A DNA stretch of 64,000 bases from Dudresnaya verticillata (GCA_977862235.1 OZ374560.1:2418001-2482000), one strand, 5' to 3'; numbered from the stretch's first letter, positions 16,301 to 48,104 are shown. Notes: generated from the sequence alone by a model not told the origin. A program made the numbers and translations.

Positions 16301-16305
16301 AACTA

Positions 16306-17140
16306 TGTCGTGCAAACGTCGTATCCAAGACGAAGAACGCCTCCGGGCCGTTCGGGAGCCCGGTGGGTAGCCGCTAGTAGCGAACGGGGTAGAGCGGGTA
16401 GAACACGCCTAGGGCGGACTGTAAACACCCAGGGCGAGCGGACGAAGGGGCAAAGAAACCCAAAAGGAAACACGTTAACAACGAGTTGAAACGTGGAAAC
16501 ACGGATGGGTAGACGCTTATGCCTTCGAGCAGCGGTAGGGTGCGCGCTGACGCGAAGGGGAAGTCCAGACTCAAACCGGCTTGCCGGGGCTTTACTGTTA
16601 CGTCCTGGACGAGGTACTAAGTAGTACTATAGCGCCGCAATACGGCGGCTGCATGACGTAGTGCGCGGGGTCTCGGGACGCGTGTCGCGTGGAGGTGCGT
16701 CTGACACGTCCCGGGATCATGCAGCCGCTGTGCGCGGGCGCGTATGTCTCACGGAGGCGTACCCGCACTCTGCTGTAAGCGATCCGGATTCGGATCGTGA
16801 TTGACACGTATTACAGGCGCCTTCCCTTACAGAGGATCCCGATGTCGGATCCGGATGTCGGATCCGGATTCGATCGGGATCCGGGCCAATCTGACAGTCG
16901 ACTCCCTTACACCTCGTTGATCCCGATGCATCATCCGGATCCGCTCTGCAGCGTTGCCCCGTACAGTGCGTCGGGCGTGCGCTGCGCTGGGTGGCGGTGC
17001 CCGCGCGTCCGTGGGCCAATCGTCGATGACGTGTTCGCGCCAACGGCGAATGAGCCGTTTCAGAGGCGACCGTCCGTCGGTCGACGAGTTTATCAGCGCC
17101 CGTGGCGAGGAAATAAAAGCCCGGTCCCCCGTGCGCCACA
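16306..17140 (-). repeat. Gypsy-1 3' LTR
   Basis: TG...CA; near-identical to 27478-28312. Confidence 0.97.
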
Positions 17141-17459
17141 CGACCCCCCGCTTAGACGCGAACACATCCATCGACCCGGTCGTTGCTTCAACCTTCGCGC
17201 TTGCGTTCTCTCGGCGTTGCCGTTTGGTGATCAATCGTCTACGCCCAGAGCGGTCGTCCCGCTTTCAGCGTGCTAGCGTTCAAGTCCATTCTGCGCCCGC
17301 GGCGTGTGTGGTTGTATCGGGGTCGTCAGCTTTCGTCGTTGACGTTTGGCGAGCTTCGTCCATGGCGCGCGTGTTCTCTCCTCGTCGACGACGTTGTTGC
17401 ACTGTGCGGTAAGTCCCTTATCGTCAGTGACGTACGCTCAAGTTCCCGTCGTTGACGCA

Positions 17460-19673
17460 ATGCCTGAGTATGATGGGGCGCAGATTGCGCCCCCTTCATC
17501 GATGCCGGTGTACCCGTCGCTGCACGACTTTGTCGGAAGGAATCCGCGTCACCACGCGCGCCTCTTCGCGAGGGCGCCGTGGTTCGACCCAGCCGCGTTA
17601 CGAAACGAAGCGCTAATTGCTCATTACGCCATTGGCGATATGTTGCCGGGGTAACTCCCCCTGGCTGTCGTCTATTCGACGGAGTGGCGAACGCGTTGCG
17701 CGATTCCGAAAGAGTGGGTGTATGCGCGCCAGGGCCAGTCGCGTGAAGATGCGCATGCCCAATTCGTCGTTGACGTATATGGTCGCTTTGCTCGGTTCCC
17801 GGGGACCGACTTGGTCCCGTTGTCGTTGGGACTCGACGCGGCATTCTTCCGCACACACGGCGAAGCCGGTTATGGATACCGTCTGGCAGAATTTCCGTTG
17901 ACGCACATTACGCCTTCATTGGACGCTCGCGTCCGGGACGATGTTCTGGTGATGGGTGTGCGCTTAAGAGCGGAATTTCGCTACTCCCACCGAGCGGGCA
18001 CCTTCTTCTGGGAGAGGTGCATTCGCTGGGAGTGTGAGTCCCGGCGCCGCAAGGGCGTGTTGGTTCCGTATCAGGATACGCAAATCGATCGCTTGGAGCG
18101 TACAAAGGCTTCGAACTGTTTCGTCAAGTTGCCGCCACAGTGGCGTGAGATGGAAGTGTGCGAGAGTTTCGCGGCAGAGTTGCCTCCGTGTGTCACGTAT
18201 CTGAGTTCTGAGCTTGTCGTGAACGCGTATTCGCGGTGGTGGATCGTCTTCCAGACGGAATGGGTTGCCAATATCGCTTATGCGTGGTTGTGGGAGGTGT
18301 ACGATACCTTTCGGATGTACTACCTCCCACCACGTATCGTAGCGTTTTTTAACGACTTGGACCTCACCGAGACGCTCGGTGGTCAGCGGAACCTCCGCGA
18401 GTTCTGGGACTTACGCCAAGTGGCGAGCGAGATCGACTGGGATAACCCCATGATCGTCCCTCTGGGAAACAGTCGCCGAAAGGCGCGTCGTCCGCGTTTC
18501 GCGATGAGCCGCAACCATCACGCCTGTGGCGACTGGACTTGGTACAATCCTTGGACCAAACGTCGAACGACGGAAAGCATTGCTGAACGTCATCGACGTA
18601 CTGACCGGTTTGTGCCGTCGGGCCACCCTCGTGGGCTACTGCCCTCGTGCGACTTTGTCGGAGATTTTCCTCCTCACTTGGCGGCGTTAACAGCCGAGGA
18701 GGACGCCTTTCACGCTGCTAGCGATGGGGTGCACACGTCTGGGACGGGCTTCGCGACGCCTATGGCGGTTGAGCCGTCAGCTTCTGCTGCAGAATCGCCT
18801 GTGGCGTCGGATGTAGTAACTGCGGCTGGGCCGTCTCCTACGCCAGTGGCGGTTGCTCCCAACAAGGGGAACGTAGCCGTCGCGGACGATGATGGTGACG
18901 CGGTCATGGCTGCCCCGGTGCAAGCACCAGTGGTCGTTGCAGGGGCGTCGTCGTCAGCTCCAAACGTCCAAGACGGTGTTACAGTACCTTCGGCGGTGCC
19001 GACTTGGAACGCCACGCAGCGCGATGTGGTCCTTTCGCTCCTGCGGGCCGCCGGCGTTGAGCCTAGCGACCCGAGCGGCTCGCCCTCGGATTGGTGGGCT
19101 CGCGTCTTGGCGACGGTTCCAACGCCGGCTGTAACGCCTGCGCGAGAGCCAGCAACTCTTCCGGTTGCGGCGCCGAGTGGCGTGACCACCGTGGGATCTT
19201 CGTCCAAGACGATGCCTTCAAATGGCGAAGCGCCTACAGCGAGTAGAGTCATTCCAACGTCATCGACGGCGGGAGTACTCGTAGCGCCTAAGGCGGCTGT
19301 CGCGCATCCTGCGCCGAAGGCGGTTAACATCCCGCGGGCGCTTGGGGCGAAGTACAAAGATGCCCTGTTGACGCCTAAGGCGATTGCATTGCGCTCGACG
19401 CCGGTGGCGGAAAAGACTTCGCAGTCGCCGAAGCCGGCGGCTGCGACAGTCGTTCATGCGCCCGAGGCGACTAGCCAGCTCGATGCTACGCCTAAGGCGC
19501 AAGTGGACGCCGTGACTAAGGCGGTGACAGTGGCCGGCGCCCCACTGGTCGCAACCACGCCGCTTGGTCCAGCTCCTACGTCTCCGACGGATGATGATGG
19601 CTATGAAGCGGCGCTTCGCGAGTCCGCCGAGGGCGATAATGCCGGCGCCTTAGGCTCGTCGAAGGCGGCTTAG
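17460..19673 (+). CDS. Antisense extra ORF of Gypsy-1, unknown function (one in-frame TAA at 17652)
   Basis: A 651-aa ORF (17718-19673) in frame with an upstream ATG at 17460. Aromatic-rich globular N-terminal half and Ala/Pro/Thr/Ser-rich tail. Confidence 0.7.
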
Positions 19674-20939
19674 GGTGACGACTGACTTCTCGTCTTTGAC
19701 GGCTTAGCGGACACGAGGGTGGGTGCCGTGGGCTTAGTCGCTCCTCGTGGAGTGACTCAAGCGGAGAGAACAGGCGTCTAGTGACGAGGACGGTGGCGTT
19801 AACGTAGCCACATAGTTAGCGTACGTAGTAGAAGCGATGGTATCGAACGCATATGCGTATTAAACGCCTTTGTTACTTTCGCATGTTGCCTTGCTGATCC
19901 TCTCCTTGGTGCGAGCCCTACGCCGTGGCTTGCGTCCGCTGTTGGGTACCCACTTGAGCGTTCGAGACGTTGAGGGCGTACCGCGTGTGCGTCGTATTCT
20001 TCGCATCGCTCGTCCTTGACGTATCCGTGTCCGAGGTGGTGGCGCACGGTGGCGCACGTGGGTTGTTGTTGTAGATCGCCACCCGCGTTGAAGTTCCGCG
20101 ACTCGTCTTCGACGCTAGTTGCGGCGCGCACAGCCGGCCTCTCTAATCGCATTTGGCGTGTTGCAGCGAAACCTGGGCGCGGGTCGGGTCGTCGTCGATG
20201 GAGGGACTTGTCCATTCGTCTTGGACGTGGTAACTGGAGGTGGCGTGCGTCGAGCGTTGCGAGACGCCGTCGCGCGTCGTTTGAAGACACCGATAGTTAG
20301 TCGCCGGCGGCGCTTTCGCTCAGCCATCTCCATTTTGGCTCGTCCTCGACGCTGTCACCACGTGCTTGCTACGGCCCCGGTGCAGAGGCGTCGCCCGTTG
20401 TTCATAGGGTGCGGTTATTTTCCTCCTCGCCTCGGAAGTGACGCGTCGTGTACGGATATCGTAACTACGGTCATTCCCGTCTGCGACGTTCTCGCATTAG
20501 GGTCTCGTGTTACTGCGTTAGCCCCTTCTTGCGTAGCGATTACGTTTCCATTTCTTTCCTCGACGCCGTCCGCCGGGCGTGTGGTGTGGCGCCCCTCTGT
20601 TGGTAGCGGCGCGTAATCGTGGGGACGCCGACGAAGGCGGTCGTCGTGGGTCGCGTGGACAGGGTAGTCGTCCGAGGCGGTAGTAGTGAGACTTCCCTTC
20701 GCGGCGACACTTGGCTGCTCGCCAGACGCCTGTGGCGAATAATTATTTTTGTTGTTTTTCTTGTATTTTCCCGTACGCTATTGCCCAGGGTCAATGATTA
20801 TCATTTGTGTGGTGCTAGCGTGTCGGTTCATCGAGGCTGACAGTTCCGTTGTGGGGTGTGTGTATGAAGATCCACTTTGAGCGCGCGTTCGCCTTTGGCG
20901 TTCCAGGACGTTAGTCCGTTCGTGATCGGTCGGGGCGTG

Positions 20940-21140
20940 TTACCCTAAACGAGCGTCGTCGATATTCGGTGGAAGGTCCGTTCGCTTTTGGCGGTGGTAC
21001 CGCACGATATGCGAACGGGGCAGATTCGACACCGGTTCCCACGTGTTCGCTGTGGGGGCGTACCCAAACCACTTCACGAAGTAGAGGATCTCCCCGTCCT
21101 CCGCGAACGCGTGCTTCTCGATCCGGTCGATGACATACTC
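20940..21140 (-). CDS. Chromodomain at the end of Gypsy-1 integrase
   Basis: EYVIDRIEKH..YFVKWFGYAPTANTWEPVSNL. Confidence 0.9.
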   Translation of the reverse strand, partial: EYVIDRIEKHAFAEDGEILYFVKWFGYAPTANTWEPVSNLPRSHIVRYHRQKRTDLPPNIDDARLG

Positions 21141-21954
21141 CCCTTCGCTGCCAGCGACTGGTTGTACTTTTCGCCTTGGGCGGGTCCTTCGGCTGCTTCG
21201 GTCCTCCGCCGTGGTCGTCCAACGGTCCTGGAAAGCGTACTCGACGCGAGGATCGCCGTGGGCGGGTAGCATCCCGTATAGCCGAACGTTCGCCTTCGGC
21301 GGGAGATGCGCTTGCGTCTGGCGTTTGCGGTGCCGGCATGGTCGAGGATTGTCCTTCGCTCCTTAGCGTAGCCTTGGTTACGTCGGCGGCGTCCTTAATC
21401 GGGTCAGCCGACGGCGTGGCCGGAGTATGCCTGGCGGCGTCGAGTCGGGTGCGGACGCTTTGCGGTTGATCGGCGTCTGAGACGGACTGCGATGACTCAC
21501 TACCGGTTCCGGCCGCGAACGGAGCCAACTCGGCCAGGTCGCGAACGGACGCCTGCGGCGAACGGTCACCACGCGTCTGTTGACCACTCCCATTTGGGAT
21601 TGGCGCTACAGCGACGTTCGTCTCGTCGTTGACGACCCCTTGGTTTGGCGGCGCCCCATTAGACGGCGGACCCACAGTCGGGGGTGTGTTGATTGCGACG
21701 TGACCCGGAGGGGTCGGCGCCCAAACCACGCGGTCCCTTGACAAACGTTCGCGTTCGTTACGTCCTTTTTCGACGGTAATCGTACCGTCTTCGACGCTGA
21801 TCACTCAGTAGGGCCCGTCCGCCACCGGCGCCAACTTGTGTTTGCGCTCCGCTTGATCCCTGGAGGTGCCTCTGGCGAAATATTCCTTGCGTACAAATAC
21901 AAAGTCTCCTGCGACAATTTTCTCGGCGCACTTCCGTAGTCGGGCGTCGACGTT

Positions 21955-24549
21955 TCACTTGTAGCGGGCTTGCGTTTGCGCTAAGGTCGCTGTCGCGATA
22001 CTCATCAAGGCGGTTAGCCATGCCCTCCACTTCTTGTAGTACTGGCCACCCGTGGGGACGCTTTCCAGCGACGGTTCCGCTTGGAGCGACAGCGGGAGTG
22101 GCGGCCGAGAGAGTACCAACTCGAACGGCGATAACTGTGTGGACGAGTGAACCTGCGTATTATAACCAAAGATCAAAGCGTCTGTGAACATATCCCAATC
22201 GCGAGGGTGGTCAGCCACGTAATGACGCAATGATGCGAGTATCGTTCGGTTAAACCGTTCTACCTGTCCATTACACTGCGGGTGATACGTCGTGGTGAAG
22301 CGATTCTCGACACCCAGTAGACGACAGACGTCCTGAAATAATTTGGCGACAAACTGCGGCCCATTGTCTGACAATAAGCGCTTGGGTGGGCCATACACGA
22401 ATACCCAATGTCGAACGAACGCTTTTGTGATTTCTAGAGCCGTAATTGTACGCAGAGGTACCGTCCTGACCAGCTTCGAAAAGCGGTCGACGATCACAAG
22501 GAGGAACTTGTTTCCCCGTTTTGTACGTATGAGTTCTCCAAGTATATCGATACAAACGAACTCTAGCGGCTCGGTAGCTGGGAACAGCTTCATCTCTTTC
22601 ACGTTCTTCCGTAGCAGGACGCGGTTCTTCGCGCAAGTAACGCAGTTGCGAACAGTTGCGTAACAGTCTACCGTCATGGACGGCCAGTAGAATTCGCGTC
22701 GGAGCGTCTGATACAACTTCCTTCCTCCTCCGGGGTGTGCCGCTAAATTAGCGTAATGCCTGAGGTGCAGGAGGCGTGCGCGTAACGCGAATGGCACAGC
22801 AGTTTGTGGCCGGACCTCTACGGTTCGTATGAGTCGCCCTTGCTCGTCCATCGCGAACGGTATCGACTTTCCGTCATCGAGACGCTTCCGAATTCCAGTA
22901 CAGTACTCGTCGTTGGCCTGCGCGTGGATCAGCTCTTCGTGCGTTACCTGACGTAAGAGCACTTCCTCCGGTGAAGGCGTGTTGGCAACGAGTAGTCGGT
23001 CGAATTCTTCGAACTCCCTTTCCACGAAGTCGACTTCGCCTTCGGCGCTGATCACCCCGTCGGTTGACGCCTGATGTCCGTCCTCGACGTGTTCCCCATG
23101 GTAGCACGGGACATCGTCGTCGATCGGTTCAACCGTCTCTCCATTCGTCTGTAGACGTGAGAGGGTGTCGGCCTGGGTGTTCAAATAACCCTTTTTGTAC
23201 TTAACGACGAAGTCGAACTCGGACAGACGCAGTCGCCATCTCATCAGACGTCCCGAGGGGTCACTGATTTCCATCAGCCACCTCAGCGACGAGTGGTCCG
23301 TGTGTATGGTAAACGACTCCATCTGGAGATATGGACGCAGCGTTGTAACGGACCACACTACTGCCAGGCATTCCTTCTCAGAGACAAAATAATTACGCTC
23401 GGGAGCGGTGAGGGAACGCGACCAGAAACCGAGTGGCTTCCGCTCCCCATTGGGTTGCGTCTGGAAGAGAGCGCACCCGACTTGATAGTCACTGGCGTCG
23501 CAATCGACGGAGTATTGCAAGCCTGGCTGTGGTAACGCCAATACCGGCGGACTGGTTACGGCTTTGACGAGAGTGTCGAACGCGGCCGCTTGCACTTCGT
23601 CGAATGACGGTAGTGTGAACTCTTGCTCCTTTCGGAGCAACTTATTGAGGGGCGCCGCGACATGCGCGTAACGCGACACGAATCGTCTATAGACGTTACA
23701 TAAACCAAGGAAGCTGCGTAGCTCCTTTTGGTCCCGCGGGTGCTTGGCTTCGCGCAAGGCGGTGGTAACCGTCCGGTCGACTTCCAATCGTCCTGGACGT
23801 ATCACGTGCCCCAGGTAATTGACAGTCGGGGTGAAGAAGTCACACTTGGCCAACTTCAAAGTCACCCCGGCTCGGTGGAGAGTTGAAAGAATCTCGTCAA
23901 CGTGACGGAAGTGCGTGTCAACGTCCTTTGAAAAGATAATGACGCCGTCCAAATAGACGAGGCACGAACGCCACTTATACCCAGCGAGTAATATGTCGAG
24001 AGTTCTTTGGAACGTGGCCGGGGCGTTGGTCAGTCCGAAAGGCATACGCTTATAGCGGAAGAGACCGGCGTGGCACGTGAAGGCTGTCTTGTCGCGATCC
24101 CGCGGAGCAATTGGCACTTGCCAGTATCCACTATTACAGTCTAGGGTGGTGAAGACGTTGGCATCCCCTAGACTGTCGATGCATTCTTCAATCCGTGGTA
24201 ACGGGTACGTATCCCGCACGGTTACTGCGTTCAGTCGACGATAATCAACGCAAAAGCGAAGAGTCCCGTCCTTCTTCGGGGCGAAGACGACCGGCGACGC
24301 CCAAGGCGATTGTGCGGGTTCGATAACCCCTTGACGCAACATGCGATCGACCTCCGCTTGAGCGAGCTGCCGTTGTTTCGGGCCAGCGCGATACGTCGGT
24401 GAAGAGATCGGGCGGGAGCCGGGGAGTAAGTCGATATAATGCTCCGTGGTTGCTATTTCCCCCAACGAGCCGTCCCACATTGACGAATAGCGGCGCAGCA
24501 TTTCCTTCAACCGGCCCTGATGCTCAGCGGACAGGTGACTCAAGTCCAA
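21955..24549 (-). CDS. pol: Gypsy-1 pol (RT-RNase H-integrase), lightly damaged
   Basis: RFCVDYRRLN, MPFGLTNAPATFQR, YLDG (normally YLDD), DASD, integrase HHCC and D-D-E. Frameshifted at both ends. Confidence 0.95.
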   Translation of the reverse strand: MDLSHLSAEHQGRLKEMLRRYSSMWDGSLGEIATTEHYIDLLPGSRPISSPTYRAGPKQRQLAQAEVDRMLRQGVIEPAQSPWASPVVFAPKKDGTLRFCVDYRRLNAVTVRDTYPLPRIEECIDSLGDANVFTTLDCNSGYWQVPIAPRDRDKTAFTCHAGLFRYKRMPFGLTNAPATFQRTLDILLAGYKWRSCLVYLDGVIIFSKDVDTHFRHVDEILSTLHRAGVTLKLAKCDFFTPTVNYLGHVIRPGRLEVDRTVTTALREAKHPRDQKELRSFLGLCNVYRRFVSRYAHVAAPLNKLLRKEQEFTLPSFDEVQAAAFDTLVKAVTSPPVLALPQPGLQYSVDCDASDYQVGCALFQTQPNGERKPLGFWSRSLTAPERNYFVSEKECLAVVWSVTTLRPYLQMESFTIHTDHSSLRWLMEISDPSGRLMRWRLRLSEFDFVVKYKKGYLNTQADTLSRLQTNGETVEPIDDDVPCYHGEHVEDGHQASTDGVISAEGEVDFVEREFEEFDRLLVANTPSPEEVLLRQVTHEELIHAQANDEYCTGIRKRLDDGKSIPFAMDEQGRLIRTVEVRPQTAVPFALRARLLHLRHYANLAAHPGGGRKLYQTLRREFYWPSMTVDCYATVRNCVTCAKNRVLLRKNVKEMKLFPATEPLEFVCIDILGELIRTKRGNKFLLVIVDRFSKLVRTVPLRTITALEITKAFVRHWVFVYGPPKRLLSDNGPQFVAKLFQDVCRLLGVENRFTTTYHPQCNGQVERFNRTILASLRHYVADHPRDWDMFTDALIFGYNTQVHSSTQLSPFELVLSRPPLPLSLQAEPSLESVPTGGQYYKKWRAWLTALMSIATATLAQTQARYK

Positions 24550-25613
24550 ATCGTCAACTGACGGAGGCTTGGCGAGTGTCGCTTCGATAGACTTAGCGAA
24601 GTGTCTGGCTTTGCTGTGACGCCATCGTCCGTTTTAAAACGAAAGTCTTGCTTGGCTTCCTCGTCCTGCGCTTGGTCTTCGGCGATACCCAACACATCGG
24701 CCAGACTTATGTGACTGGGGAACACTGCTGTTGGATGTGGTAACGCCATGGCAACGAACTGCCCTTTCGCGAGCGATTGCGCCCGAGGCGAGAAGTTGGC
24801 GACTAGGATGCGAAACGCCTTGAGGGGCTCCACCTGGGCAATTCCGTTCGTAACGAGCATGCCCTGCCGATCGTACATCGTTCCGAACGGCTGGATCTTG
24901 ATTACTCCGGAACGTTCCGTGGTAACAGAGACCCACTTCTGCGCCTGAGGCGGAATGATGGTACGTTCGGTTGAACGAATCTTTGGCGAAGTCCTTCCTC
25001 CGGCTTGGCCGTACTCTTGCTCCGGTGGTAACGGCGGATACGACGGCGGTCGACGGAGCGGACGTCGTGTGATCGGGACTCGGGTCCCGTCGTCCAATTC
25101 AACCTCGCGACTTCGCGGATATATCGCCTCGACAAAGCGGTCGCAAAAGTCGCAACCGAGTATGACCGGCGCAGCGAGCCGTCCGCAAACGATTAATTCC
25201 AATTTAACGACGCGCCGTCCGAGACGCACGACCAAGTCGATGGTTCCGCGTTTCTGTATTGCCTTGTTGTTGGCGTCGGAAATAACGGGCAGACTCTTGG
25301 CGACAATATGCGAACGCGCTTCTAGCGGAATCTCGTTAATACGGATGAAATTAGGGCCAGCCCCGGTGTCGAGGACAGTACGTTTACGGGCCAAGGTATT
25401 GGTGGTGGTGCCTAGATCGGCGTACACCTTGTAATTCCGCTTTGCCATTACGAACAACTGTCCTCGCCCCTTCGGGGGCTGGTACCTACGCCATGGGCGT
25501 TTCAGTGACGTCTGCGACGGTTCTATGCGCCCTTCGGCGTCTTCCTTAAGTGGCTTCGGGCCCTCCTTCCGTGTCAACACCCGAGGCGGGGGCCTCTCGT
25601 TTGGGTGTGACAC
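24540..25613 (-). CDS. pol: Gypsy-1 aspartic protease region
   Basis: VLDTGAGPNFI and ILGCDF motifs; in the -1 frame relative to gag. Confidence 0.9.
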   Translation of the reverse strand: MSHPNERPPPRVLTRKEGPKPLKEDAEGRIEPSQTSLKRPWRRYQPPKGRGQLFVMAKRNYKVYADLGTTTNTLARKRTVLDTGAGPNFIRINEIPLEARSHIVAKSLPVISDANNKAIQKRGTIDLVVRLGRRVVKLELIVCGRLAAPVILGCDFCDRFVEAIYPRSREVELDDGTRVPITRRPLRRPPSYPPLPPEQEYGQAGGRTSPKIRSTERTIIPPQAQKWVSVTTERSGVIKIQPFGTMYDRQGMLVTNGIAQVEPLKAFRILVANFSPRAQSLAKGQFVAMALPHPTAVFPSHISLADVLGIAEDQAQDEEAKQDFRFKTDDGVTAKPDTSLSLSKRHSPSLRQLTIWT

Positions 25614-25639
25614 CCCAGTGTCAGGAGTCGGTGCCCGGA

Positions 25640-27351
25640 TTAGTTTTTCGCCTCCGGCGGTGGTTGCGCTATGTAGCGGTTTAGCATCGTCGGGTGGCGT
25701 TCGGCTGCACGCGGCGCAAGTCCCGCCCCTGGCGATGATGAACGCGCGGCGCGACGGGCTGCTTCCTTCGTGGCTTGTTCCTTACAACGGTGGTACGCAT
25801 CAGCGGGTACTCCGTTCCTTTCAACCTCCATCAGGCCCTCGTAGTTGGCGACGACCTTCATGAAGTCACTCATTCGCAAGAAGCACTCCGGCGCGATGTG
25901 ACCGCGTGCATAGCACTGATGGCAAATAATTTGTCGCCGTACGTCTTGACGAGGGGGCCCTCGGTCCTGCCATCCGGGTCTTGCACGATGAACATGCGGG
26001 GCATATTCTGAATATGGTACGCGCGGCGCGGGTACATTCGAGCGCCCAAAGGCGAGAGCGGGATCCATTTCTTCTTCGTCTTCGACGTAACTGTCTGTCG
26101 GTAATGCTGACGTTGGTATCGAGAGCTGCTCGTCGGCTAGATACAAGTCGCCATCGGCGTGTGTTCTGACGTCATCGTTGCGGTGGCTAACGTCTCGGAA
26201 TTTGACGGATGACTCCGCCAGCATGGCGCGTGCCGCCGGCTTTGGACTCTTCGTCGGTTGACGGTTGACTGCGACGGCGGGTCGTGCTTTGCGGGCGAGT
26301 TGTGTCGGCACCAGTATATCCTGGCGACCCGCAGTCTGTCCGGCCCTGCCGTGTCGCGCGCGATGCGCGTCGCCCTCGTCCTGTGCGAAGTGCACCAATC
26401 GTTCGAACGATAACTCCGCCCTTGGCGTCTCTTCGCGGAAGCGGGTAACCAGCGATCGTATCGATGGATCAAGTCCGTCGATGAATAGGGTCATCTTCTC
26501 CCAGTCAGGGTACACGTTGCCGCAACGGATGCACGCTCCAGCGAGCCGCATGCCATAGGCAGTTTCATCTTCAGACCGCTTCTGTGCTGTTGAGCGTAAC
26601 GCCAGTACGGCGGATCGAATCGCCGAAGGCGTCGCATACGTACGGAGGAGGTACTGTACCGCCTCCGGGTATGAAGAGACCCCGCCTTGATGGCGTGTTG
26701 ACGTCGACTTGACGGACCGGAACTGCGTCAACGTCGTACCCCGTAGGAAGTATGGCAGCGCTATGAACGCTTGAGCTTCGCTCATTTCTAGCGTATCGGC
26801 CTCATCCGCGAAACGCGTAAGGAACTCAAGGGTCAGGACCGGGTCGTCGCCCGTGAAGGCGGCGTCCTTCATCGTCAACTCTAGATGTTTGATGTGGTCT
26901 TTGACCTTCCCGGTTTCACGTCCGGAACGCTTTTGCCCGACGTTCGTCAGACGGTAAGTACGATACGACAAGAGTCGATCGAATAAGGGGTTGGTTGTTG
27001 TTGTTCCTCGGCAAGGCCGGCTTGTGTTCCGTCTACGACGCCTTGTTGCTCCGCCTGGACGGTGTCGGCGGAGTCAACGTAAGTGTGGTAGGTACGGAGG
27101 GCGGAGCCTTCCGGGACTGAAGTACGAACGACGATCGGATTCGGCGGGGGAGCAGGTTGTCCCCTGTTCAGCGAAGCGTGTGACACGTCATGGTCCGGCG
27201 GTGCCGTAAAGGCTGAGGCAATCTCCGGACTGACGTGACGACCAGATCGTGTCGTCATGGGTTGGGCCGGTCCCGACGGCGGCATAGTGCCGGGCGTCGA
27301 AGACGGGCGCCGGGAGGATCCACGCGATAGCGGTGGTCGCGGTGGACCCAT
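25640..27351 (-). CDS. gag: Gypsy-1 gag (frameshift near 26960)
   Basis: CHQCYARGHIAPEC knuckle and a capsid-like region similar to Gypsy-2 gag (YRTYRL / YRTHRL). Confidence 0.85.
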
Positions 27352-27456
27352 GATTGTTTCAAAGAGGTAGGCGAACGTCGTGAACGATGGGCAGAACGTC
27401 AGGGTGACGGTTAAGCGATCGTCTCACAGACGTTAAAGTTCGTAGATACGTAGCAG

Positions 27457-27475
27457 CTTCTAGGTCGGGAGACCA
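27457..27475 (-). promoter_or_regulatory. Gypsy-1 primer-binding site
   Basis: TGGTCTCCCGACCTAGAAG, 2 nt downstream of the 5' LTR. Confidence 0.85.
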
Positions 27476-27477
27476 GT

Positions 27478-28312
27478 TGTCGTGCAAACGTCGTATCCAA
27501 GACGAAGAACGCCTCCGGGCCGTTCGGGAGCCCGGTGGGTAGCCGCTAGTAGCGAACGGGGTAGAGCGGGTAGAACACGCCTAGGGCGGACTGTAAACAC
27601 CCAGGGCGAGCGGACGAAGGGGCAAAGAAACCCAAAAGGAAACACGTTAACAACGAGTTGAAACGTGGAAACACGGATGGGTAGACGCTTATGCCTTCGA
27701 GCAGCGGTAGGGTGCGCGCTGACGCGAAGGGGAAGTCCAGACTCAAACCGGCTTGCCGGGGCTTTACTGTTACGTCCTGGACGAGGTACTAAGTAGTACT
27801 ATAGCGCCGCAGTACGGCGGCTGCATGACGTAGTGCGCGGGGTCTCGGGACGCGTGTCGCGTGGAGGTGCGTCTGACACGTCCCGGGATCATGCAGCCGC
27901 TGTGCGCGGGCGCGTATGTCTCACGGAGGCGTACCCGCACTCTGCTGTAAGCGATCCGGATTCGGATCGTGATTGACACGTATTACAGGCGCCTTCCCTT
28001 ACAGAGGATCCCGATGTCGGATCCGGATGTCGGATCCGGATTCGATCGGGATCCGGGCCAATCTGACAGTCGACTCCCTTACACCTCGTTGATCCCGATG
28101 CATCATCCGGATCCGCTCTGCAGCGTTGCGCCGTACAGTGCGTCGGGCGTGCGCTGCGCTGGGTGGCGGTGCCCGCGCGTCCGTGGGCCAATCGTCGATG
28201 ACGTGTTCGCGCCAACGGCGAATGAGCCGTTTCAGAGGCGACCGTCCGTCGGTCGACGAGGTTATCAGCGCCCGTGGCGAGGAAATAAAAGCCCGGTCCC
28301 CCGTGCGCCACA
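27478..28312 (-). repeat. Gypsy-1 5' LTR
   Basis: TG...CA, followed by the PBS on the minus strand. Confidence 0.97.
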
Positions 28313-28317
28313 AACTA

Positions 28318-32964: not shown

Positions 32965-34029
32965 TAATTTCTCGTCAACATCTGTGCAGGTGCAGAATCT
33001 ACAGCATCCTCTTCGTCGCCTTCACCGCTATCACTTGGTGTTGCTTAATCTTCATTAACATCTATTTCTTCAGCCGAAGTTTGAAACTCACATGCAAGAC
33101 AGCTACAAGTGATATTGGTTAAGCTGCGCAGCAAGCTTCCGAGATCTTTGTTTCCTGTTTCTTCCTTATCATATACGTCCCTATATTTCGTGGCTACATT
33201 CAGTAGTGCGAACCTTGCGCTCATGAACGGGACGAGGTTCCAACCTTGTAAGTATCTCGAGAAATATGTCGTCTTCTTGATGCGGTTGTTAAACGACTCA
33301 GCTGCACTAGAACGATGCCCATAGAGGTCTTTTTACATATCCGCATTGAATGCGCTACAGTAAGTGTGTGACTTGTAATGAAATCTATTAACTACAATCT
33401 GCGACAGGTGCAGAAGCCATGGTGTACGCAACAATGTCGAAGTCGAAAGATTACAACCGTTGTCGTAATAGATAACTCTCGGCGGTATTCGGAAGTGTGT
33501 TAGCATAGTTGACAACGCCATAGCGGTTGACTCAACCTTTGTCATCACAATGTACCCAATTATCTTGGGACGGTCGCACACACACATTACTACAAGGAGA
33601 CCCGGCGAATGGTATTCGCTTCTCATGTACTCTTTTCGACAGTGCTGCTTCTCCAGAGTGTCGAAAAGGATGCCAGGTCGAAACGATGCCCGTCCTGGGA
33701 AACAGATCCCAGTATCTCGGCTATTGTTCCGTGTGTTTGAAATCTCATGAGGTAGTACTCTGTCGCAGCTCATCGCATAAGCTTTGCTTTCAGCAGAGCA
33801 TGTCCTTGTGAGATCCCGAAAGAACTTGGAAACTTTTTTGATTTGCTGAAACACAACGTCACCAATAGCGGACGCGAGATATCTCTTCTGTACGCTATGG
33901 TGATCAGTCAACAGAAACCATTCAGTGCAGAAGCGATATAAGATAGGATTCACTCCTTGAACTGCAGCAGCCTTATCCCGAACCGTCACCAGGCAATTGC
34001 AGCTGCCATCACCGTCACAATCTTTTATG
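32965..34029 (-). pseudogene. KDZ (Kyakuja-Dileera-Zisupton/HMGXB3-like) transposase, C-terminal catalytic part
   Basis: C.K....HSPGL...CVC..IIGY..M...ES, IYYDNGC, VVNRFHYKSH..C, then past a premature TAA at 33333 SSAAESFNNRI...ALLN. Confidence 0.8.
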
Positions 34030-34034
34030 GCTAC

Positions 34035-34797
34035 TGTGGTGCAACGGCAAGGGGGCCACCGAAAGGAAGCAACTCGACGGGCCAACTGTACGATCGGCCC
34101 AACCAAACGAAGACACTTGGCCAATGAAGTCGTGCCGTCGGGGCGCGAACGGCGGTGAGCGCGCGGAAGTATGAAACGTGGCCACCGACTGTACACGTGG
34201 CTCACACGTGGCCACCTACGACACCGAAGCGCACCACGTGGCCTGCTGTACACGCATGATCTGATTTTGCGACCAGACACAAATCGAAATTGGATTTGGC
34301 CGCACAGTGAATCAAAGGGAAGACAGTGGAAAAATCAAGGGAAAATCTAACTCGCATGGCCAACCACTAACGCACAAGTACTTGGTTTAGTCTCGCAAGG
34401 GCCTTACATTGGCCCGAAGCCGGAACGCAAGTAGATATTATGGCCGACCGGAGTAACCTCGGCCACTAACTGTAGAATAGCTCTAGATTAGCTCAGATGG
34501 CCGATTTTGGGCCTATTTAGCTGGCCACACACTACGGCTAAGCCGAAAAAGGTATGAAGCCGTCCCGCCAGAGGTTGGGAGTAAAGTTAGCAACTGAACC
34601 CCCGACTGGGCCATTTTACGTCCTCATCACGGATACTGGCCACGACTTCGTCTGCGCGCTCCCTCTCTACCACGCTTGCTACCGGCGCGCAGGTCCGTTC
34701 TACGTTCGGCCAGTTTCTACGAAATCCGACAGGTCTTTGTGGTCTTCTTGGGGTCTCGTTTGGCTTCCGTACGCGGCGGTGCTCTAGAGATACTACA
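34035..34797 (+). repeat. Gypsy-2 5' LTR
   Basis: TG...CA; matches 46479-47241. Confidence 0.96.
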
Positions 34798-34798
34798 C

Positions 34799-34817
34799 TG
34801 GTCTCCCGACCTAGAAG
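34799..34817 (+). promoter_or_regulatory. Gypsy-2 primer-binding site
   Basis: TGGTCTCCCGACCTAGAAG, identical to the Gypsy-1 PBS. Confidence 0.85.
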
Positions 34818-35274
34818 ATCAGTTGTGATTTCGGCCGTATTTCTCCGTTAGAAGACTCGAGTAGCTGGCCGTAGTCGACGACGGCCAGTGTCTTCCTCGC
34901 TACTGTGGTGGCCAAACCCCGCAAGTTGCAGATTGCGGGTTAGTAACTACCTGGTTCCGCAATTTGATTGTCAGTCTACTTCAACCCATTTCAGTGGCCA
35001 CAGTCTAGGTCACAGGCCAGATACCCGTCGCTTGGTTCGTTCCCAGGTTGGCCACTTTGCACACTCGCTGGTTCGTTCCCAGCACAGGGAGCTTTGCACA
35101 CGGCAGTGTCCGGCCCTTGGTATAGGGACTATTAGCTCGGAATCGTCCGTTCCCACCCCTGTGTTTTGCACACGACAGTGTGGTTCCCAGGAAGGCCACT
35201 TTGCACACGTCGGCCACGGGGTGGCCACAAATCGCTAGAAGTATCTGGCCAATCAGTCTCCGACGTACTTCGTC

Positions 35275-37612
35275 ATGTCTTCTTCTTCTTCGCCGGCAGG
35301 CGGACAACTGCAGTCCTTACAAGGCTCGGCTCCGCCTCCCTCCACGTTGGGCGCTCCCATAGGCCCACCCCTGCTCCTGGCCTGTATCCACCGTTATTGG
35401 GGCCAACAACAGCTCCTCCGGTCCCGTTATCAACTTGCCAGTTCATTCCTCCGACGGTTGTACGAGCAGGGTCAGCTTCCACAGCAGGTGCCGTCCGTAA
35501 TGAGGTACCGCCACGGACAGCCCCACCGGTCTCACCGTGGCGCACGCCGCCGGCGGCCATAGCGCCGCCGATGACCCCGCTGGCCGCTCCTGCCAATCTT
35601 CGTCCACCTCCAGTTGATGATGATTCCCAGCCAGAACACGACGTTTGGTTGGGCCGGGAAGAGTTCTACCAGAATAAACGACGTACGGCTGAGTGGCAAC
35701 AAGAGGTGAAGAACCAGTTTGGCGAGATGCAAGTCAAGATGTCCACCACGGCTCTGATTAGGGACCAACAGCTTCGCCAGGAGATACACTCCGTCATCCT
35801 AGACGGTGCACTTACGGCCATAGCGGAACGTTATGATGAGCGTCTGGAAAAGGTCGAGAAGGCCGTTTTGTCTTCCGACGGGAAGGGAAAACTTCCCGCT
35901 CCTCCTGGCCAGACAAGGTCCGAGTCCGCTCGGATAACACCGGTCAACCTACCCGTCTTGGCACCGCAGGTGGGTGAACCGGTAGCAGCAGTGCAGAAGC
36001 AACTGGAAAAGTTGCAAGATGAGATAACGGCCTTGTCGCATCCTGTCAAGGCTCGGCAAAATATTCCTGAAGGAGGGGTACCCCCGCAAGAGGGCAACAC
36101 TCAGAACAGTGGTGCCGCCCCACGGACTGCTTTAGTTGGACCTTCGGGGCCAGTTGATGCAGGGGAACCTTCCATGGGATACACTGGCCAGTTGGATGAA
36201 ACAGGTCTTCCTGTAGCGATGATGGGGCCAATGGAACCAGGTCTAGAGCCTCTCAAGACCCTCCAAGAACCCTTCCGGCGGGTGGTGGATTACCGGACCC
36301 ACCGTCTGTTAGATACCCGGCCAACGATGACTATGGAGGACCTTCAGCGCTTGTCCCGGATGACTCGTCAAATCCGGAACTTGTTCCCGCAGATGAACCC
36401 ATTTGATGGCCGTCGTCCGATCGAGCTCCTGTCCTTCCTCAAGGAGTTCAAGGATGCCTGTGATGGGACAAACGTCCATGAAGGGGCCGCTTTGCGTCTT
36501 CTGGCCTTCTTTACGGCCGGTGATGCGAAGAGGTTCTATTCTGGCCGAAGTTCCCGTGGTATAAGGTCAGTACACTCCATCTTTCCGATGAGTGCATTTC
36601 AAAAATCAGCTGGCCACACTTAGTCCACGTTCTCATCAAGCGCTACTGCACCGAAGATGTTCTGGCCGCTGCATTCGACAAAGTGGCCGGAAGCAAACAG
36701 AAAGATACCGAGACAGAAGCGGAATTCGCTGAGCGGTTGGGGGATGCGGCGCTGTCGTGCGCCGATGTCTTCTCGGAGAACACCCTGATCAACCATTATG
36801 TGAGGGGTTTACCTTCGACCACTCGTTCGGCCGTAGCTGAGAAGCTTATGCAGATGCGGCCGGAGGAGAAGGACGTTTCGACGGTGCGCCGAATCGCCAT
36901 CGCTGAGGGGGAGACACACAGAGCCTACTTGGCTTCTGCACGTCCCAAAACAAGGTCGGCCAGTTCTCGAAGTGCGTTGGTCATCCCTACCCTTGCGGCC
37001 GAACCTGCTTGGCAGGCGGAGCCCGAGGATATAGCGGCCAACTATGATGATCCGTTTGACACCATACCGGTTATGGTCATTAACCCTGGCCAGAATGGTG
37101 CTCAGCAAACACCGACGATGATGTCGACCACGCCGTCACCGGCAGGATCGTTGTCCGGGGGTAATACCCCGGACCCACTCCGGAAACCTCCGATGTTAAC
37201 GTCGGATGAGCTGGCCAAAGTCGCTATTATGCTACGCAGTGACAAAACCAGTGCTCGTTGTTGGGGTTGTCGCGAATGGGGCCATGATTTGCACACTTGT
37301 GTGTACTTACCACTGGCCATCAGGAACTTGTCTGCCATACGTAACTTCCGCTTCCGAGATGAATTCGCTAGATGGCACCCCGAACAGTTTGCTGGCCGAG
37401 GTGGGCGAGGTTACCGCCCCGACCAAAGGAATGTCTCCTTTGGGGATGGAAGGGGACGCCCTCCCCCTCAGGGAATACTCCGACGGCCACAACAATCATC
37501 TTCGAATCGTGGGAATCTGCAGGCCACGTTAGTCACTACGCAAGAACATCCATTGGATGAGGTGGTGGCCGATGCGGAGTCCGATAATTCTTCGTTGGCA
37601 TCGGGAAACTAG
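35275..37612 (+). pseudogene. gag: Gypsy-2 gag (frameshift and in-frame stop)
   Basis: ORFs 35275-35562, 35166-36623 and 36683-37612. CWGCREWGHDLHTC knuckle. Ends G GGA AAC TAG. Confidence 0.85.
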
Positions 37613-37632
37613 CCGGGCCGAGATCTTCGGTC

Positions 37633-40600
37633 GTGATCCCGTTGCCCGTACACGTCCCAAAACCGGCTAGTCTCGTTTCAGTTAAGTTGTTTCCTTTTAG
37701 TCATCTCCATTTTTCTTCTTTGTTAGCCATTGCATGGCGTTTGGCAACGCCAATCCAGGTTTGGTCAACCCATGATTTGACCTACCACTGCCCATTTTCA
37801 TCTAACGGTCTGGTGTGGTCACCGCCCTGGAGGTTTGGCAATACTACATCATCATCCACCCCCACCACAAACGATGGGGGTTCGTTGCCAAAGAGTGGCC
37901 GTAAATCATCGAACGACGAACAGAAAGAAGAATCCCAACTGGCCAGTGTTTCATCACAAGGTATGGTCTGCATCCTGGGTGGGACCAACTATACCCTTTC
38001 GGGTTCATTTGGACTCACAATGTCCGCCTTGTTACCCGGGCCAATTGTCTTAGACACGTGCTCGGGTTGGAACATCATCCGCTTGGATCCGTTGCCTCCC
38101 AATTGGAAGGACAACGCACTTACGTTGACATCCCCACCTCTTCTGGGGCACGCCAACCAACGGCCGATTCATTTTAGAGGGGCCGTTTCCTTGGTCGTGC
38201 TCTTAGGCCGTCACTCATATCGAGTGCCGTTCCTTATCGCCGACTTTCGCTTTGCCGTATCCGTTTTGTTGGGTACGGCATTTCTGAACACGCACGTGGA
38301 TTCCATCCAGTGCCGTGGACAGACCGTGCACTTAGTGCGCGGTGACGTCCTTCCTTTGTTACTCGACAGCACTTCGATGGCTCTGGGGGCAGAGCCAACC
38401 GCTGGGAAGGGGGCCCCGCCTCCGGGTAATTCCAATTCGGCCAGTACGGAACGCAAGACCCCGCGACACTACGCGGCCACTGTACGCTTGACGAAAGGTC
38501 TGACCATACGGGCAGGTCAACAGGCCACCGTGTCTGTTCGCAGCGATGGCCGAGGGTTGTGTGTGTTGGAGCCCAAACATTCTTTGAGCTTCCGGCACCA
38601 TACGCGGATGGCCAATGGATTTGCAGAAGTTTGGCCGCAGAAACCATTCCAGGTAATGCTGGCCAACTGGGGAAGAAAGGATGTCTTACTGCCAAAGGGT
38701 ACCGTGGTCGGCTATGCTGTCCGCCACCCCTTGGCAATCCTGACACCACACGGACAGAGTTTGGAGAGTATGACCAGTGTACTTGGGCTTACTCCACTTG
38801 TGGATCAGGATAGTAGTCAAGTAGAAGTAGAAGAATCTGGCCAAGAAAGAGTTGAGCCTTCGGAACCAAAGGTACCCAGACAAGAGGCGCAAGAATGGCG
38901 GGATAATATCAAGCTTGATCATATTCCGGACAAGAAACAACGCGAAAAGATAATGGCCATTCTAGAGAAACACAGTGCTATGTGGGACGGTTCCCTGGTA
39001 CAGATCATGGCCACCGAACATCGGATAGACTTGGAAGATGGAACCCGGCCAATAAGAGCGATGCCCTGCCGACAGGGACCAACGTTACGCGCCATCGCAG
39101 AGGCCGACATTAGGAAGCAGTTGGAGGCCGGAGTGATAGAGCCATCGCACGGAGAATGGGCCTCGCCAATTGTGATGGTACCGAAAAAGGACGGCACCCT
39201 TCTTTTCTGCGTCGACTACCGCCGACTCAATGCGAAGACAGTTGGTGACGCGTATCCACTCCCGCGCATGGATGATTGTATAGACTCCCTTGGGGATGCG
39301 GCCGTGTTTTCAACCTTGGACTGCAACTCCGGATATTGACAAATGCCAGTGGCCGAGGAGGACAAGGATAAGACGGCCTTCACCTCTCACTTGGGAACAT
39401 TCAGGTACAATCGAATGCCATTTGGCTTGAAGAACGCACCAGCCACATTTCAGCGCGCGCTTGACATAGTTCTCTCTGGCGTCCGGTGGCAGATCTGCCT
39501 CATCTATCTGGACGATGTCATCGTGTTCTCCAAAAGTGTGGAGGATCATCTTGGCCATCTAGACGAGGTCCTAACCTTGTTGAAGGCGGCCGGAATCACG
39601 TTGAAGTTGAAGAAGTGTTCCTTCTTTCAGGCCAAAGTAGATTATCTGGGCCATTTAGTGACTCCCGGAAAACTAAGTATGACCATGCAGGGTACCAAAG
39701 CAATACAAGAGGCCGCGTTTCCAGGATCTCTTACGGAACTTCGGTCTTTCTTGGGAGCTTGCCATGTCTACGGAAGGTTTGTGGCCAAATACTCCACTAT
39801 CGCACGACCACTTACGCGCATGTTGTGCAAGGATGCCGAGCCGGACTTCGAACGGCCAACAGAGGAACAACGTCATAGCTTCGAGAAACTGAAGGCCGCT
39901 CTCGTCTCGCCACCTATTCTGGCCTTACCTAGATACAGCCGGCCATATGTGATTGAAACCGATGCCAGCGCATATCAGATTGGATGCGTCCTGCTCCAAG
40001 AACAAGAGGACGAGTCGTACCATCACGTGGGATATTGGTATCGTTCCCTGACGTCGGCCGAGAAAAATTATTCGGCCACTGAGCGCGAGTGTTTGTCTGT
40101 GGTATGGGCCATTACATCATTACGGCCATATGTTGAAGGTACCAAGTTCACAGTTCGTACGGACCATGATGCCCTCCGTTGGTTGATGTCGCTCACTGAT
40201 TCGTCTGGCCGTCTTACAAGATGGAGATTACGTCTGGCCGAGTTCGACTTTGTGATTGAGTATAAACCGGGGCGTAAGAACCAAGTCCCCGATGCCTTGT
40301 CCCGCTTGGTGGCCCCGCAAGAGAGCGGAGAAGCACGGCCAATAGAAGATACTGTACCTGTATTGGACGGTACCCCCTCTATTCTCACGACCACGCGGGT
40401 CCGGAGAAATCGAGAAGTTAATATGGCCGACAGGAGAGAACGAGACGATGGAGTCGACGCATGGGAACAGGAACATTTGATGGCCGATTATACGGACTAT
40501 GGACGAGCGGAAGTTTTCAGTCGTGCACAAATGGAAGGGAAGACAGCAGAGACTCTCCCAACATCAGTAACACAGGCTGAAATAATAGAAGGTCAGAAAA

Positions 40601-42026
40601 GCGATGACTTCTGCCAGACCATTCTTGCCACGCGAGCTGGGCTGGGACGACCCAAGAAACCTCTCTTCCTCGAAGGGGCTGATGGGGTCCTCTACAGACG
40701 TTGTCCGACAGATGGCCAGAAACAAATAGTGCTTCCAGCCTCGTTACATGGCCGCATTCTCCAGTTGTGTCACCATACCGTTCTGGCAGGTCACCCTGGC
40801 CAGAATCGAATGTATCAGACTCTTCGACGGACATACTATTGGCCGCACATGGCCGCTGATTGCCTAGCAACGGTTCGAAACTGTGGACATTGCGCGAAGA
40901 ACCGGATTCGTCGTCTCCGACATACATCGAAGTTACAGCTGTTCCCGGCCAGTCAACCATTAGAGAGTGTGGCCATGGATCTTCTCGGGCCTCTCCCCAT
41001 AACTAAGAAGGGGTTCGAGCACATACTAGTCATTACATGCCGCTTCTCGAAGCTCACTCAGGTGGTGCCGTTGACGAAAATAACCGCCTATAATGTGGCC
41101 ACGGCGTTTTGCGTTCACTGGATTTTCAAGTACGGTGCACCAAAGACAGTTATTACGGACAACGGTGGGCAGTTTGCGGCCAAGTTTTTCCAAGCGGTCT
41201 GCCGACAATTACAGGTGGCCAACATCTTCACAACGACATATCATCCGCAAACGAATGGCCAGGTGGAAAGGTACAATCGAACATTGGCCGCAATGCTGAG
41301 GAGCTACCTGAATGAACATCAGACTGACTGGGATGAGTACGCTGCGGCATTGACGTATGCTTATAATTGCCATATACATCGTTTGAATTGGTTCTCAGTC
41401 GGCCGCCGAGTCCATTCTTACTTGAAGCTACGTTAAACCGGCCAAAGCCAACAGGGACTGTGAAAGAAGCGTTCTTACGCCGACTATCAGAGGCCGTGGA
41501 TAAAGCTTCGGCCAGTTTAACTCGCACACAAGCGCGCTACAAGAAGGACTTTGACCGCTCAGTTAGAACGGGGAATAAAATGCTGGCCGCAGGGGGGTTT
41601 GTCTTCCTAGGCAACCCAGAAAAGTAGCCAAAGAAACTAGAGCATCATGACGAGGGGCCATACAAAACTAAAAGCAACGATGGCCGTACGTTCGTCATCG
41701 ACAGAGCTGGCCAACTGGAGCGTGTTAGTTCGGACCGAGTAGTAGCCGCGCCCAGGCCACAAGGGCAACCGATGGCTACGGAGACATTGGCCAGTGCCGC
41801 GTTGGGAAACCTTCCAGAAGGCGTCGCTGCGACGGCCGATGAATACGTCATTGACAAACTCACTGATATGCGCGAGGATTCAACTGGCCAGCGGTGGTTT
41901 CAGGTCAAGTGGTATGGGTATAATGGCCGAACGTGGGAACCCGAGGCTCTTCTGCCGGCCACGTGGGTATCCCGCTTCTTCGCGCGCTTGAAGCGCCGAG
42001 CTACGCCGGGCCAAAACAGTTCCTAA
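37633..42026 (+). pseudogene. pol: Gypsy-2 pol (PR-RT-RH-IN-chromodomain) with stops and frameshifts
   Basis: VLDTCSG, FCVDYRRLN, TGA at 39337 in place of W, YLDD, DASA, integrase core, and chromodomain EYVIDKL..VKWYGY..TWEPE (41840-42000). Confidence 0.95.
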
Positions 42027-45800: not shown

Positions 45801-46240
45801 TTCTTCTTCAGAATGGCCAGTTGCTGCTCCTCAGCTTCGCGCCTCTTCTGACTGGCCGCTATCTCCTGCATTAACTTGTCGGTGCCAACGTCGGGCGTAG
45901 CTTGCACCATGGCCGGGGTTGCAGAGGCAGCAACACTCTTCTTCTGGGCAGTTTTGAGGGGCTTCTCCACCGCGGCCGCCTTCGCAGCAATCAACGGATC
46001 GTTAGATGCACGACTTGGGGTCTTGGGTGCTGGGGCAGAAGACGCCCTGGGCGTCTTCATCGCACGCGGCCTCGAACTCTGGCCAGTCTTCTTCGTGGTC
46101 GCCTTCACTCTGGCCACAGCGACTTCTTTGTTGCTCGACGGCGGTGTGGATGATGAACTAGAAGAAACGGTCAGTCGTACAGTCTTCTTCTTGGCCGACG
46201 CGGTGCGGCGCGGACGCGCTTTCGCAGGGCCACCCGCCAT
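42850..46240 (-). CDS. Antisense extra ORF of Gypsy-2, unknown function (two overlapping frames)
   Basis: ORFs 44240-46240 (666 aa, Lys/Ala/Pro/Ser-rich) and 42850-44349 (499 aa: aromatic domain, coiled coil, Pro-rich tail). Probably one frameshifted gene. Confidence 0.7.
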
Positions 46241-48100: not shown

Positions 48101-48104
48101 CAAG

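Follow-up and report, generated by a model that had tools for sequence, protein, structure and literature searches.

A conserved antisense accessory gene and family-specific palindromic signatures in chromodomain Ty3/Gypsy elements of the alga Dudresnaya verticillata

The window analysed here, a stretch of 64,000 nt from Dudresnaya verticillata (GCA_977862235.1 OZ374560.1:2418001-2482000), carries two full-length Ty3/Gypsy elements, Gypsy-1 on the minus strand and Gypsy-2 on the plus strand. They were classified on the basis of paired LTRs with TG..CA termini, TSDs, a PBS, a PPT and the pol order PR-RT-RH-IN. The LTRs of Gypsy-1 are identical at 832/835 positions and flanked by the 5-bp TSD AACTA, those of Gypsy-2 agree at 754 of 768 aligned positions and are flanked by GCTAC, and the two elements share the same PBS over 20 nt. 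A chromodomain follows the integrase, as in chromoviruses; against PF00385 (Chromo, cut-off 25.1 bits) it scored 44.5 bits in Gypsy-1, 25.0 bits in Gypsy-2 and 22.2 bits (E 1e-4) in a related element on an independent metagenome contig, L001. RT-RH sequences are 58% identical between Gypsy-1 and Gypsy-2 and 54-61% identical among the three elements. The protease of Gypsy-1 gave a Pfam match below the cut-off (E 0.006) and Pfam yielded no match for the Gypsy-2 protease region, though its position corresponds to that of the Gypsy-1 protease. In both window copies gag-pol is interrupted by several stops or frame breaks. Between the chromodomain and the 3' LTR, each element carries a long coding sequence on the strand opposite to gag-pol. 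The features are as follows.

16306..28312, no strand: Gypsy-1 signature, 122 perfect CG-XY-NNN-Y'X'-CG palindromes (114 with one LTR counted)
16306..17140, minus: Gypsy-1 3' LTR, 835 bp, TG..CA
17460-19673, plus: Gypsy-1 antisense ORF, whole, beginning 320 bp from the 3' LTR
17460..18692, plus: Gypsy-1 antisense ORF, globular domain of about 410 codons, homologues 17-37% identical in the domain alignment
18693..19673, plus: Gypsy-1 antisense ORF, C-terminal arm, Ala/Val/Pro/Ser-rich, with palindromes dense (21 per kb)
19859..19864, plus: ATTAAA, candidate poly(A) signal of a putative antisense transcript
20943..21158, minus: Gypsy-1 chromodomain, separated from the integrase by frame breaks and one stop
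21955..27073, minus: Gypsy-1 gag, protease and RT-RH-IN, spread over three frames
27478..28312, minus: Gypsy-1 5' LTR, with the PBS directly after it
34029..47241, no strand: Gypsy-2 signature; of the 92 TGGCCA in the window, 76 lie here
34035..34797, plus: Gypsy-2 5' LTR, TSD GCTAC
35136..42026, plus: Gypsy-2 gag, PR-RT-RH-IN and chromodomain, disrupted at several points by frame breaks and stops
42850..44367, minus: Gypsy-2 antisense second piece, the remaining domain, a coiled coil and a Pro-rich tail
44240..46240, minus: Gypsy-2 antisense first piece, a basic Ala/Pro/Ser/Lys arm of about 500 aa and the N-terminal part of the domain
46479..47241, plus: Gypsy-2 3' LTR, with a polypurine tract just before it
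60299..61132, plus: solo Gypsy-1-family LTR (94% identity), TSD GCAAG, inside a TIR element

Gypsy-1 is inserted into a Copia-type element (11825-30151) with 279-bp LTRs that are 97% identical and with RVT_2 and rve fragments. The TIR-flanked element that holds the solo LTR (48104-62793) has terminal inverted repeats of about 880 bp (95%), 117-bp subterminal tandem units and an ORF for an N6/N4 DNA methyltransferase at 51074-52846 (PF01555, E 5e-10). A further ORF, at 33333-34334 and overlapping the left end of Gypsy-2, weakly matches a KDZ transposase (PF18758, E 0.008), and both this and the methyltransferase ORF resemble accessory genes of Plavaka and Mutator elements of Bostrychia and Chondrus, as far as these are described in the accessible part of 10.1101/2025.02.11.637652, a resemblance that would fit a red-algal host. 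A 450-aa ORF at 818-2170 lacks a Pfam match. Rfam gave 0 matches over 16300-47300, and no tandem arrays were found within Gypsy-1 or Gypsy-2.

The antisense coding sequences correspond to the structural class aORF-3R, comprising long antisense ORFs that lie between pol and the 3' LTR and are conserved across copies or families. An earlier note on this DNA had placed a long opposite-strand ORF between integrase and 3' LTR in both elements, and the location of the LTRs, TSDs, chromodomains and ORFs bears this out; all ten peptides that it quoted are also present. Both coding sequences are broken, a point absent from that note: the Gypsy-1 ORF has a single in-frame stop (17652-17654, codon 65) and the Gypsy-2 sequence consists of two overlapping ORFs in different frames, starting 239 bp from the 3' LTR. 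Homologues align upstream of the Gypsy-1 stop, which supports the proposed start at 17460. The domain precedes the arm in Gypsy-1, and in Gypsy-2 a basic arm leads into the domain, which is followed by a coiled coil and a Pro-rich tail, with the disordered Ala/Pro/Ser arms lying at opposite ends, as the note had stated.

No transmembrane helix was detected in the antisense proteins of Gypsy-1 and Gypsy-2, for which the best 19-residue hydropathy was 1.03-1.27; in a wider set of 12 proteins the best window reached 1.03-1.51 in 11 and 1.86 in one (P0001). Identity with Env, already doubted in the earlier note, was rejected on the basis of the antisense orientation and the lack of such a helix. 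TRP28 (PF04195) was also rejected: none of 16 alignment members matched it at E up to 1, nor did the Gypsy-2 pieces match it. In L001 an AATAAA lies about 130 nt past the stop of the antisense ORF, and no antisense poly(A) signal was found in Gypsy-2. The antisense 5' leader of Gypsy-1 contains a splice-donor-like GTAAGT at 17410-17415, and an AATAAA/TATA-like site occurs at 17112, within the 3' LTR.

The Gypsy-1 antisense ORF represents a conserved accessory gene, and its protein family is real and previously unrecognised. Searching with the Gypsy-1 domain identified 4 related sequences among 3126 candidates (E 1.5e-57 to 4e-6), a profile search identified 12 family members among 7995 scored sequences, and the family totals 14 sequence clusters that are 15-68% identical and retain invariant motifs. 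The proteins span 430-1150 aa and share a Trp-rich helical domain of about 390 aa, whose conservation exceeds that of the tail in 3/3 pairs (56/40, 71/43 and 60/24%). They fall into two clades, with a mutual identity of about 15-24%, and a clade I profile detects clade II members at E 6e-26 to 1e-20. Clade II homologues combine the domain with a coiled coil and end in basic, NLS-like tails. Some clusters are multi-copy, with 33, 110 and 22 members, and among the members listed 11 of 15 are full-length at 552 aa and 7 of 15 at 546 aa.

The genomic layout of homologues was read from a single contig, L001, the one confirmed case among 59 matches of a pattern search of metagenome contigs; all other homologues, the whole of clade II included, are represented by their protein sequences. 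One strand of L001 encodes gag and an uninterrupted pol that includes the chromodomain, and the opposite strand, adjoining the LTR, an intact 782-codon homologue (27% identity). The contig also has a related PBS. The homologue has an N-terminal arm, and the position of the arm therefore varies within the family. The contig (1-10742) has 35-nt terminal repeats and one LTR, which fits either a circle with one LTR or a high-copy element that has been collapsed, and its pol has a long Pro/Thr-rich linker ahead of the chromodomain. Pattern scans for the ORF family in viral contigs and prokaryote genomes found nothing, and a PBS scan and a single-sequence RT scan were both empty.

Structure prediction followed by Foldseek, as suggested in the earlier note, was performed for the domain of about 390 aa. 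An AlphaFold2 model based on 16 sequences is mainly helical (pLDDT 78, pTM 0.80), and Foldseek found 0 matches to the whole domain in PDB and BFVD at E<=0.001. The best VIA-align result for the whole domain had Z 2.9 and rmsd 2.2 over 47 aligned residues. Pfam and PDB sequence searches with the family gave nothing significant, there was no zinc-cluster match in Pfam, and no known DNA-binding fold or motif emerged from the Pfam, PDB, Foldseek and VIA searches. Rows for the MBD4 glycosylase (E 3-9, rmsd about 15) and a PDB sequence row for DPP4 (E 0.21) were rejected as noise. The model is compatible with a new fold, and the 14 clusters, together with the lack of Pfam, PDB and BFVD matches, uphold the note's suggestion of an unrecognised family. 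In the ESM Atlas the best feature score for Gypsy-1 was 0.85, to an unnamed cluster, and no usable match was obtained for Gypsy-2. The literature consulted, mainly the main text of freely accessible papers, contained no description of the ORF family or of element-wide palindromic signatures.

Whether the Gypsy-2 ORF belongs to this family was less straightforward. Homology between the two proteins had been proposed by eye, and pairwise and local methods failed to support it. Pairwise BLASTP was not significant (best E 0.86 and 0.17). In Smith-Waterman comparisons of the Gypsy-1 domain with the second Gypsy-2 ORF, 249 and 78 of 300 shuffles scored as high, and only 2 of 24 comparisons between the family and Gypsy-2 gave z above 3. 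A local HMM reached at best 0.8 bits, equal to the score of an unrelated pol, a local PSSM gave z of at most 2.0, and HHalign gave E 0.08-0.54, yet the full-family alignment is collinear over 291 columns. The whole-domain profile test did support homology: with X placed at the frame break, the Gypsy-2 domain had a Forward score of z 5.1, reached by 0/600 shuffles and 0/600 local shuffles, in a custom implementation for which the scoring window was picked after the alignments had been seen. Each half also passed separately. An N-half profile against the first piece gave z of about 5 (0/300 shuffles and 0/189 ORF decoys), a C-half profile against the second piece likewise (0/300 and 0/56), these decoys including non-coding frames, and Gumbel p values for the halves, each alone and in the right order, were about 1e-3 and 2e-3. 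Crossed controls failed (z -1.6 and 0.3), and a tandem domain duplication in Gypsy-2 was rejected on the same grounds. Four of the five motif pairs proposed earlier occupy the same columns of the family alignment; the SHRAGT/AHRTGG pair does not, and it was rejected as a conserved motif.

From these profile comparisons, the split Gypsy-2 ORF is probably a distant family member. An unrelated ORF, gained independently and resembling the family in composition (Trp-rich and helical), is unlikely, and could be combined with any of the mechanisms considered below. It would account for the failure of every local test, for the identity of only 14-20% to family members and for the absence of relatives of the second piece among 677 candidates (277-884 aa) and in 1.84 billion representatives, but it does not explain the Forward score, the independent success of the two halves or the failure of crossed controls and decoys. 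Position, strand, PBS and lineage are also alike, and the domain is joined to a coiled coil as in clade II. Single-clade profiles scored Gypsy-2 more weakly (z 1.8-2.9) than did the full family; low scores are to be expected for members of this family, as the true member in L001 has a z of only 1.1 when scored with the clade II profile. The model of the second piece was uninformative (pLDDT 40).

Each of the three related elements also carries a different dispersed palindrome, coding regions included. Gypsy-1 has 252 CG-N7-CG sites, of which 114 form perfect palindromes against 24.5 expected by permutation; in the rest of the window, with the solo LTR and the two Gypsy elements set aside, the figure is 12 of 168. 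The main forms are CGCC-N3-GGCG (34) and CGTC-N3-GACG (32), with 0.8 expected for each and only 4 mixed sites, and a simple homodimer on independent CGYC half-sites was rejected because it predicts 1:2:1 instead of 34:4:32. The arms covary when the two main motifs are omitted (48/186 against 12.1 expected, 0/2000 permutations), and the covariation is limited to an outer CG, one of 16 dinucleotides. Loops of 3 nt dominate (114 against 24.5), followed by 4 (37 against 12.2) and 5 (28 against 11.0), with weak enrichment at 2 (15 against 8.0) and none at 0-1. Sites occur at 12-25 per kb around the antisense ORF and at 7-10 per kb elsewhere, and their number was reached by 0/300 synonymous shuffles in 4/4 ORFs. 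In the solo LTR, 5/5 CGYC-N3-GRCG sites are kept despite 54 differences in 838 columns.

For Gypsy-2 the motif is GGCCA/TGGCC, with 241 occurrences against 35 expected (one LTR counted), in the LTRs, the spacer and all ORFs. GGCC exceeded all 300 synonymous-codon shuffles in 6/6 ORFs and TGGCCA in 4/6, the count in the other two being reached by 4 and 26 of 300. The motif is strand-symmetric (122/119) and its flanks show no covariation. The GGCC sites (34029-46473) avoid close spacing, with 2 gaps of <=15 nt against about 26 under a rough random model, and this would fit a binding footprint. The L001 signature is GGC-N5-GCC (27 against 4.5 expected), reached by 0, 0 and 8 of 300 synonymous shuffles in three ORFs and with weakly covarying flanks (14/27 against 7.4-8.4); CGA-N5-TCG also occurs there 21 times against 8. 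A contiguous k-mer scan missed the Gypsy-1 and L001 signatures, seeing AAGGCG (27 against 7.3) as a mere fragment, and both were found by spaced-dyad scans. Within the disordered arms the signatures surface as recurrent peptides, with five copies of TGQ in Gypsy-2 (44243-46240) and four of PKA in Gypsy-1 (18693-19673), and the arms may thus serve partly as motif carriers.

In the other two elements the signature of each occurs at, or close to, the background level, and consequently a shared host factor or mutation bias does not explain those of Gypsy-1 and Gypsy-2 in one genome. No comparable palindrome was found in the Copia segment or in 3/3 distant Gypsy contigs lacking the ORF, the best log10 p for 3-bp arms being -2.4 to -3.8 against -24, -39 and -10 in the carriers; the control Gypsy contigs are partial, from other sources and of lower GC (0.36-0.48). 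The signatures are, nevertheless, not exclusive to ORF carriers, because the TIR element, in which no antisense-family ORF was found, has a palindrome of its own, CAGA-W-TCTG, with 10 occurrences, confined to 50281-60174, against 0.5 expected. This is possibly a self-marking methylase site; its core GAWTC resembles the GANTC site of CcrM.

Enrichment at synonymous positions suggests selection on the element itself, and the different signatures of two families within one genome fit a reader encoded by each family better than a single host factor; the fast-diverging antisense gene is the obvious candidate for such a reader. This ORF constitutes a conserved third gene of a chromodomain Ty3/Gypsy lineage, the Gypsy-1 stretch being a broken copy. 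We propose that it may be transcribed from the 3' LTR end, and that its product, with a predicted novel fold, would act in the nucleus and may well bind the palindromes of its own element. We put the chances of such binding, to double-stranded sites in Gypsy-2 and L001 and to 4-bp hairpins in Gypsy-1, at about even. Palindrome reading would let an element recognise and protect its own copies and keep the family active against host silencing. Protein and signature would then diverge together, which fits antisense proteins that are 14-26% identical beside RT-RH sequences at 54-61%. The association between protein and motif was observed in three related elements, and their signatures differ in kind, the arms covarying in a hairpin-like manner in Gypsy-1 but not in Gypsy-2, which counts against this reading. 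By analogy with VANC, the closest precedent, we favour self-recognition, and a family-specific reader leading to anti-silencing or trans-activation is plausible, if tentatively so. The anti-silencing role that the earlier note had guessed at is favoured indirectly by the palindromes specific to each element, which that note had missed.

The main rival reading is that the palindromes are signals in element RNA or single-stranded cDNA, used in packaging, dimerisation, export or reverse transcription and read by Gag or by a Rev-type antisense protein. The Gypsy-1 covariation argues for a hairpin-shaped target and keeps an RNA or ssDNA packaging or export role alive: it persists without the two main motifs, the enrichment follows hairpin geometry (loops of 3-5, not 0-1), sites extend throughout the whole genomic RNA, and the L001 flanks covary weakly. 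Against this, G-U wobble forms are barely raised on the gag-pol strand (9 against 6.5; antisense-type 18 against 11.1), a fifth stem pair is avoided (14/114 against 29.4 expected), one composed CGTC example folds as RNA with only -1.3 kcal/mol, and the Gypsy-2 motif is strand-symmetric without covarying flanks. Weak wobble tolerance and the Gypsy-2 symmetry lean towards a DNA rather than an RNA target, and we regard signals in RNA or cDNA as a doubtful explanation.

Equally doubtful, in our estimate, are separate causes: the antisense protein would have another role, for example in bringing the integration complex into the nucleus or directing it to chromatin, while the palindromes would arise through binding by host proteins or because sites of a DNA methyltransferase are selectively favoured or disfavoured. 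Protein and motif have been linked by association rather than directly, the TIR element that has a signature also encodes an N6/N4 methyltransferase, clade II proteins have basic NLS-like tails and the Grande antisense protein is described as nuclear in the accessible part of PMC7264820. Such an explanation requires, however, a distinct host factor for each family within one genome, and a signature was present in 3/3 carriers and in 0/4 LTR-element controls. That the ORFs are non-functional by-products, with antisense RNA alone or nothing of consequence, is highly improbable, for although both window copies are broken and antisense RNA regulation has been discussed for other elements (PMC7264820, in part), these copies are likewise broken in gag and pol, and protein-level conservation over 14 clusters (15-68%) with motifs that do not vary, the many copies that are intact and the confidently predicted fold all argue against it.

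Returning to the family-specific reader, its fullest form would be a self/non-self system in algal LTR retrotransposons, in which a reader with a new fold, encoded by the backwards gene, co-evolves with a family-specific palindromic barcode that extends over the entire element and into its codons, the barcode of one family being a DNA mini-hairpin shape and not a fixed sequence. We regard this composite as possible and hold it still more tentatively. The signatures, at up to 19 sites per kb and built into codons, need explaining whatever reads them, and a different strong palindrome in each family provides an obvious candidate target, so that the function of the ORF can be tested by binding and motif-swap assays. 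If confirmed, the family would provide a new group of readers whose predicted fold is new and whose specificity varies in nature.

For decades LTR retrotransposons have been known to carry extra ORFs in antisense, to our knowledge with no function assigned to them. As such they are familiar from Retand, Grande and Boty, and it is the protein family and the signatures that are new. Maize Grande gene23, rice RIRE2 and Silene Retand/TRP28 (PF04195) share the position, after pol and ahead of the 3' LTR, and the orientation of the Gypsy-1 and Gypsy-2 ORFs; in the parts of PMC7264820 and PMC11963269 that were accessible, these aORF-3R are described as conserved across families and of unknown function, with a proposed regulatory role, and PMC9289625, also accessible in part, is a further source on antisense ORFs at this position. 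Retand belongs to a plant non-chromovirus lineage, whereas Gypsy-1 and Gypsy-2 carry a chromodomain, and the Gypsy-1 family has no TRP28 or other Pfam match. The fungal Gypsy element Boty/BcGypsy1 of Botrytis cinerea has an antisense gene, brtn, similarly placed behind pol (PMC7264820, PMC8365987, both in part), and the earlier view that such genes are atypical for chromoviruses was therefore overstated. The Gypsy-1 family, with its Trp-rich helical domain of about 390 aa and no zinc-cluster match in Pfam, differs from brtn as far as the latter is described. Among retroviruses, the antisense HBZ of HTLV-1 and the accessory Rev are likewise encoded by extra genes near the 3' LTR (PMC11963269, PMC7264820, in part); no similarity was found in viral structure predictions (BFVD, Foldseek), and the present elements have no env.

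The closest parallel is VANC of the Arabidopsis VANDAL elements, which are Mutator-like. According to the accessible part of PMC5735166, VANC21 recognises a short motif that, by its density, distinguishes the protein's own family; this density sets the targets of VANC, which removes methylation. As there, Gypsy-1, Gypsy-2 and L001 each combine an element-encoded accessory protein, having conserved and variable regions, with a dense family-specific short motif within the element. VANC motifs, as described in that source, are not palindromes and are found for the most part in tandem repeats outside coding DNA, whereas those found here are palindromic, dispersed and present in all ORFs, within codons. 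VANC is, moreover, the protein of a DNA transposon and the present elements are LTR retrotransposons; a comparison with Pfam families gave no match that would relate the two proteins. Binding and demethylation have been demonstrated for VANC, and the Gypsy-1 family is known here from its sequences. If our reading is true, these elements would possess a retrotransposon counterpart of VANC anti-silencing, and its confirmation would mean that counter-silencing by sequence recognition is found in retrotransposons as well as in the DNA transposons of plants.
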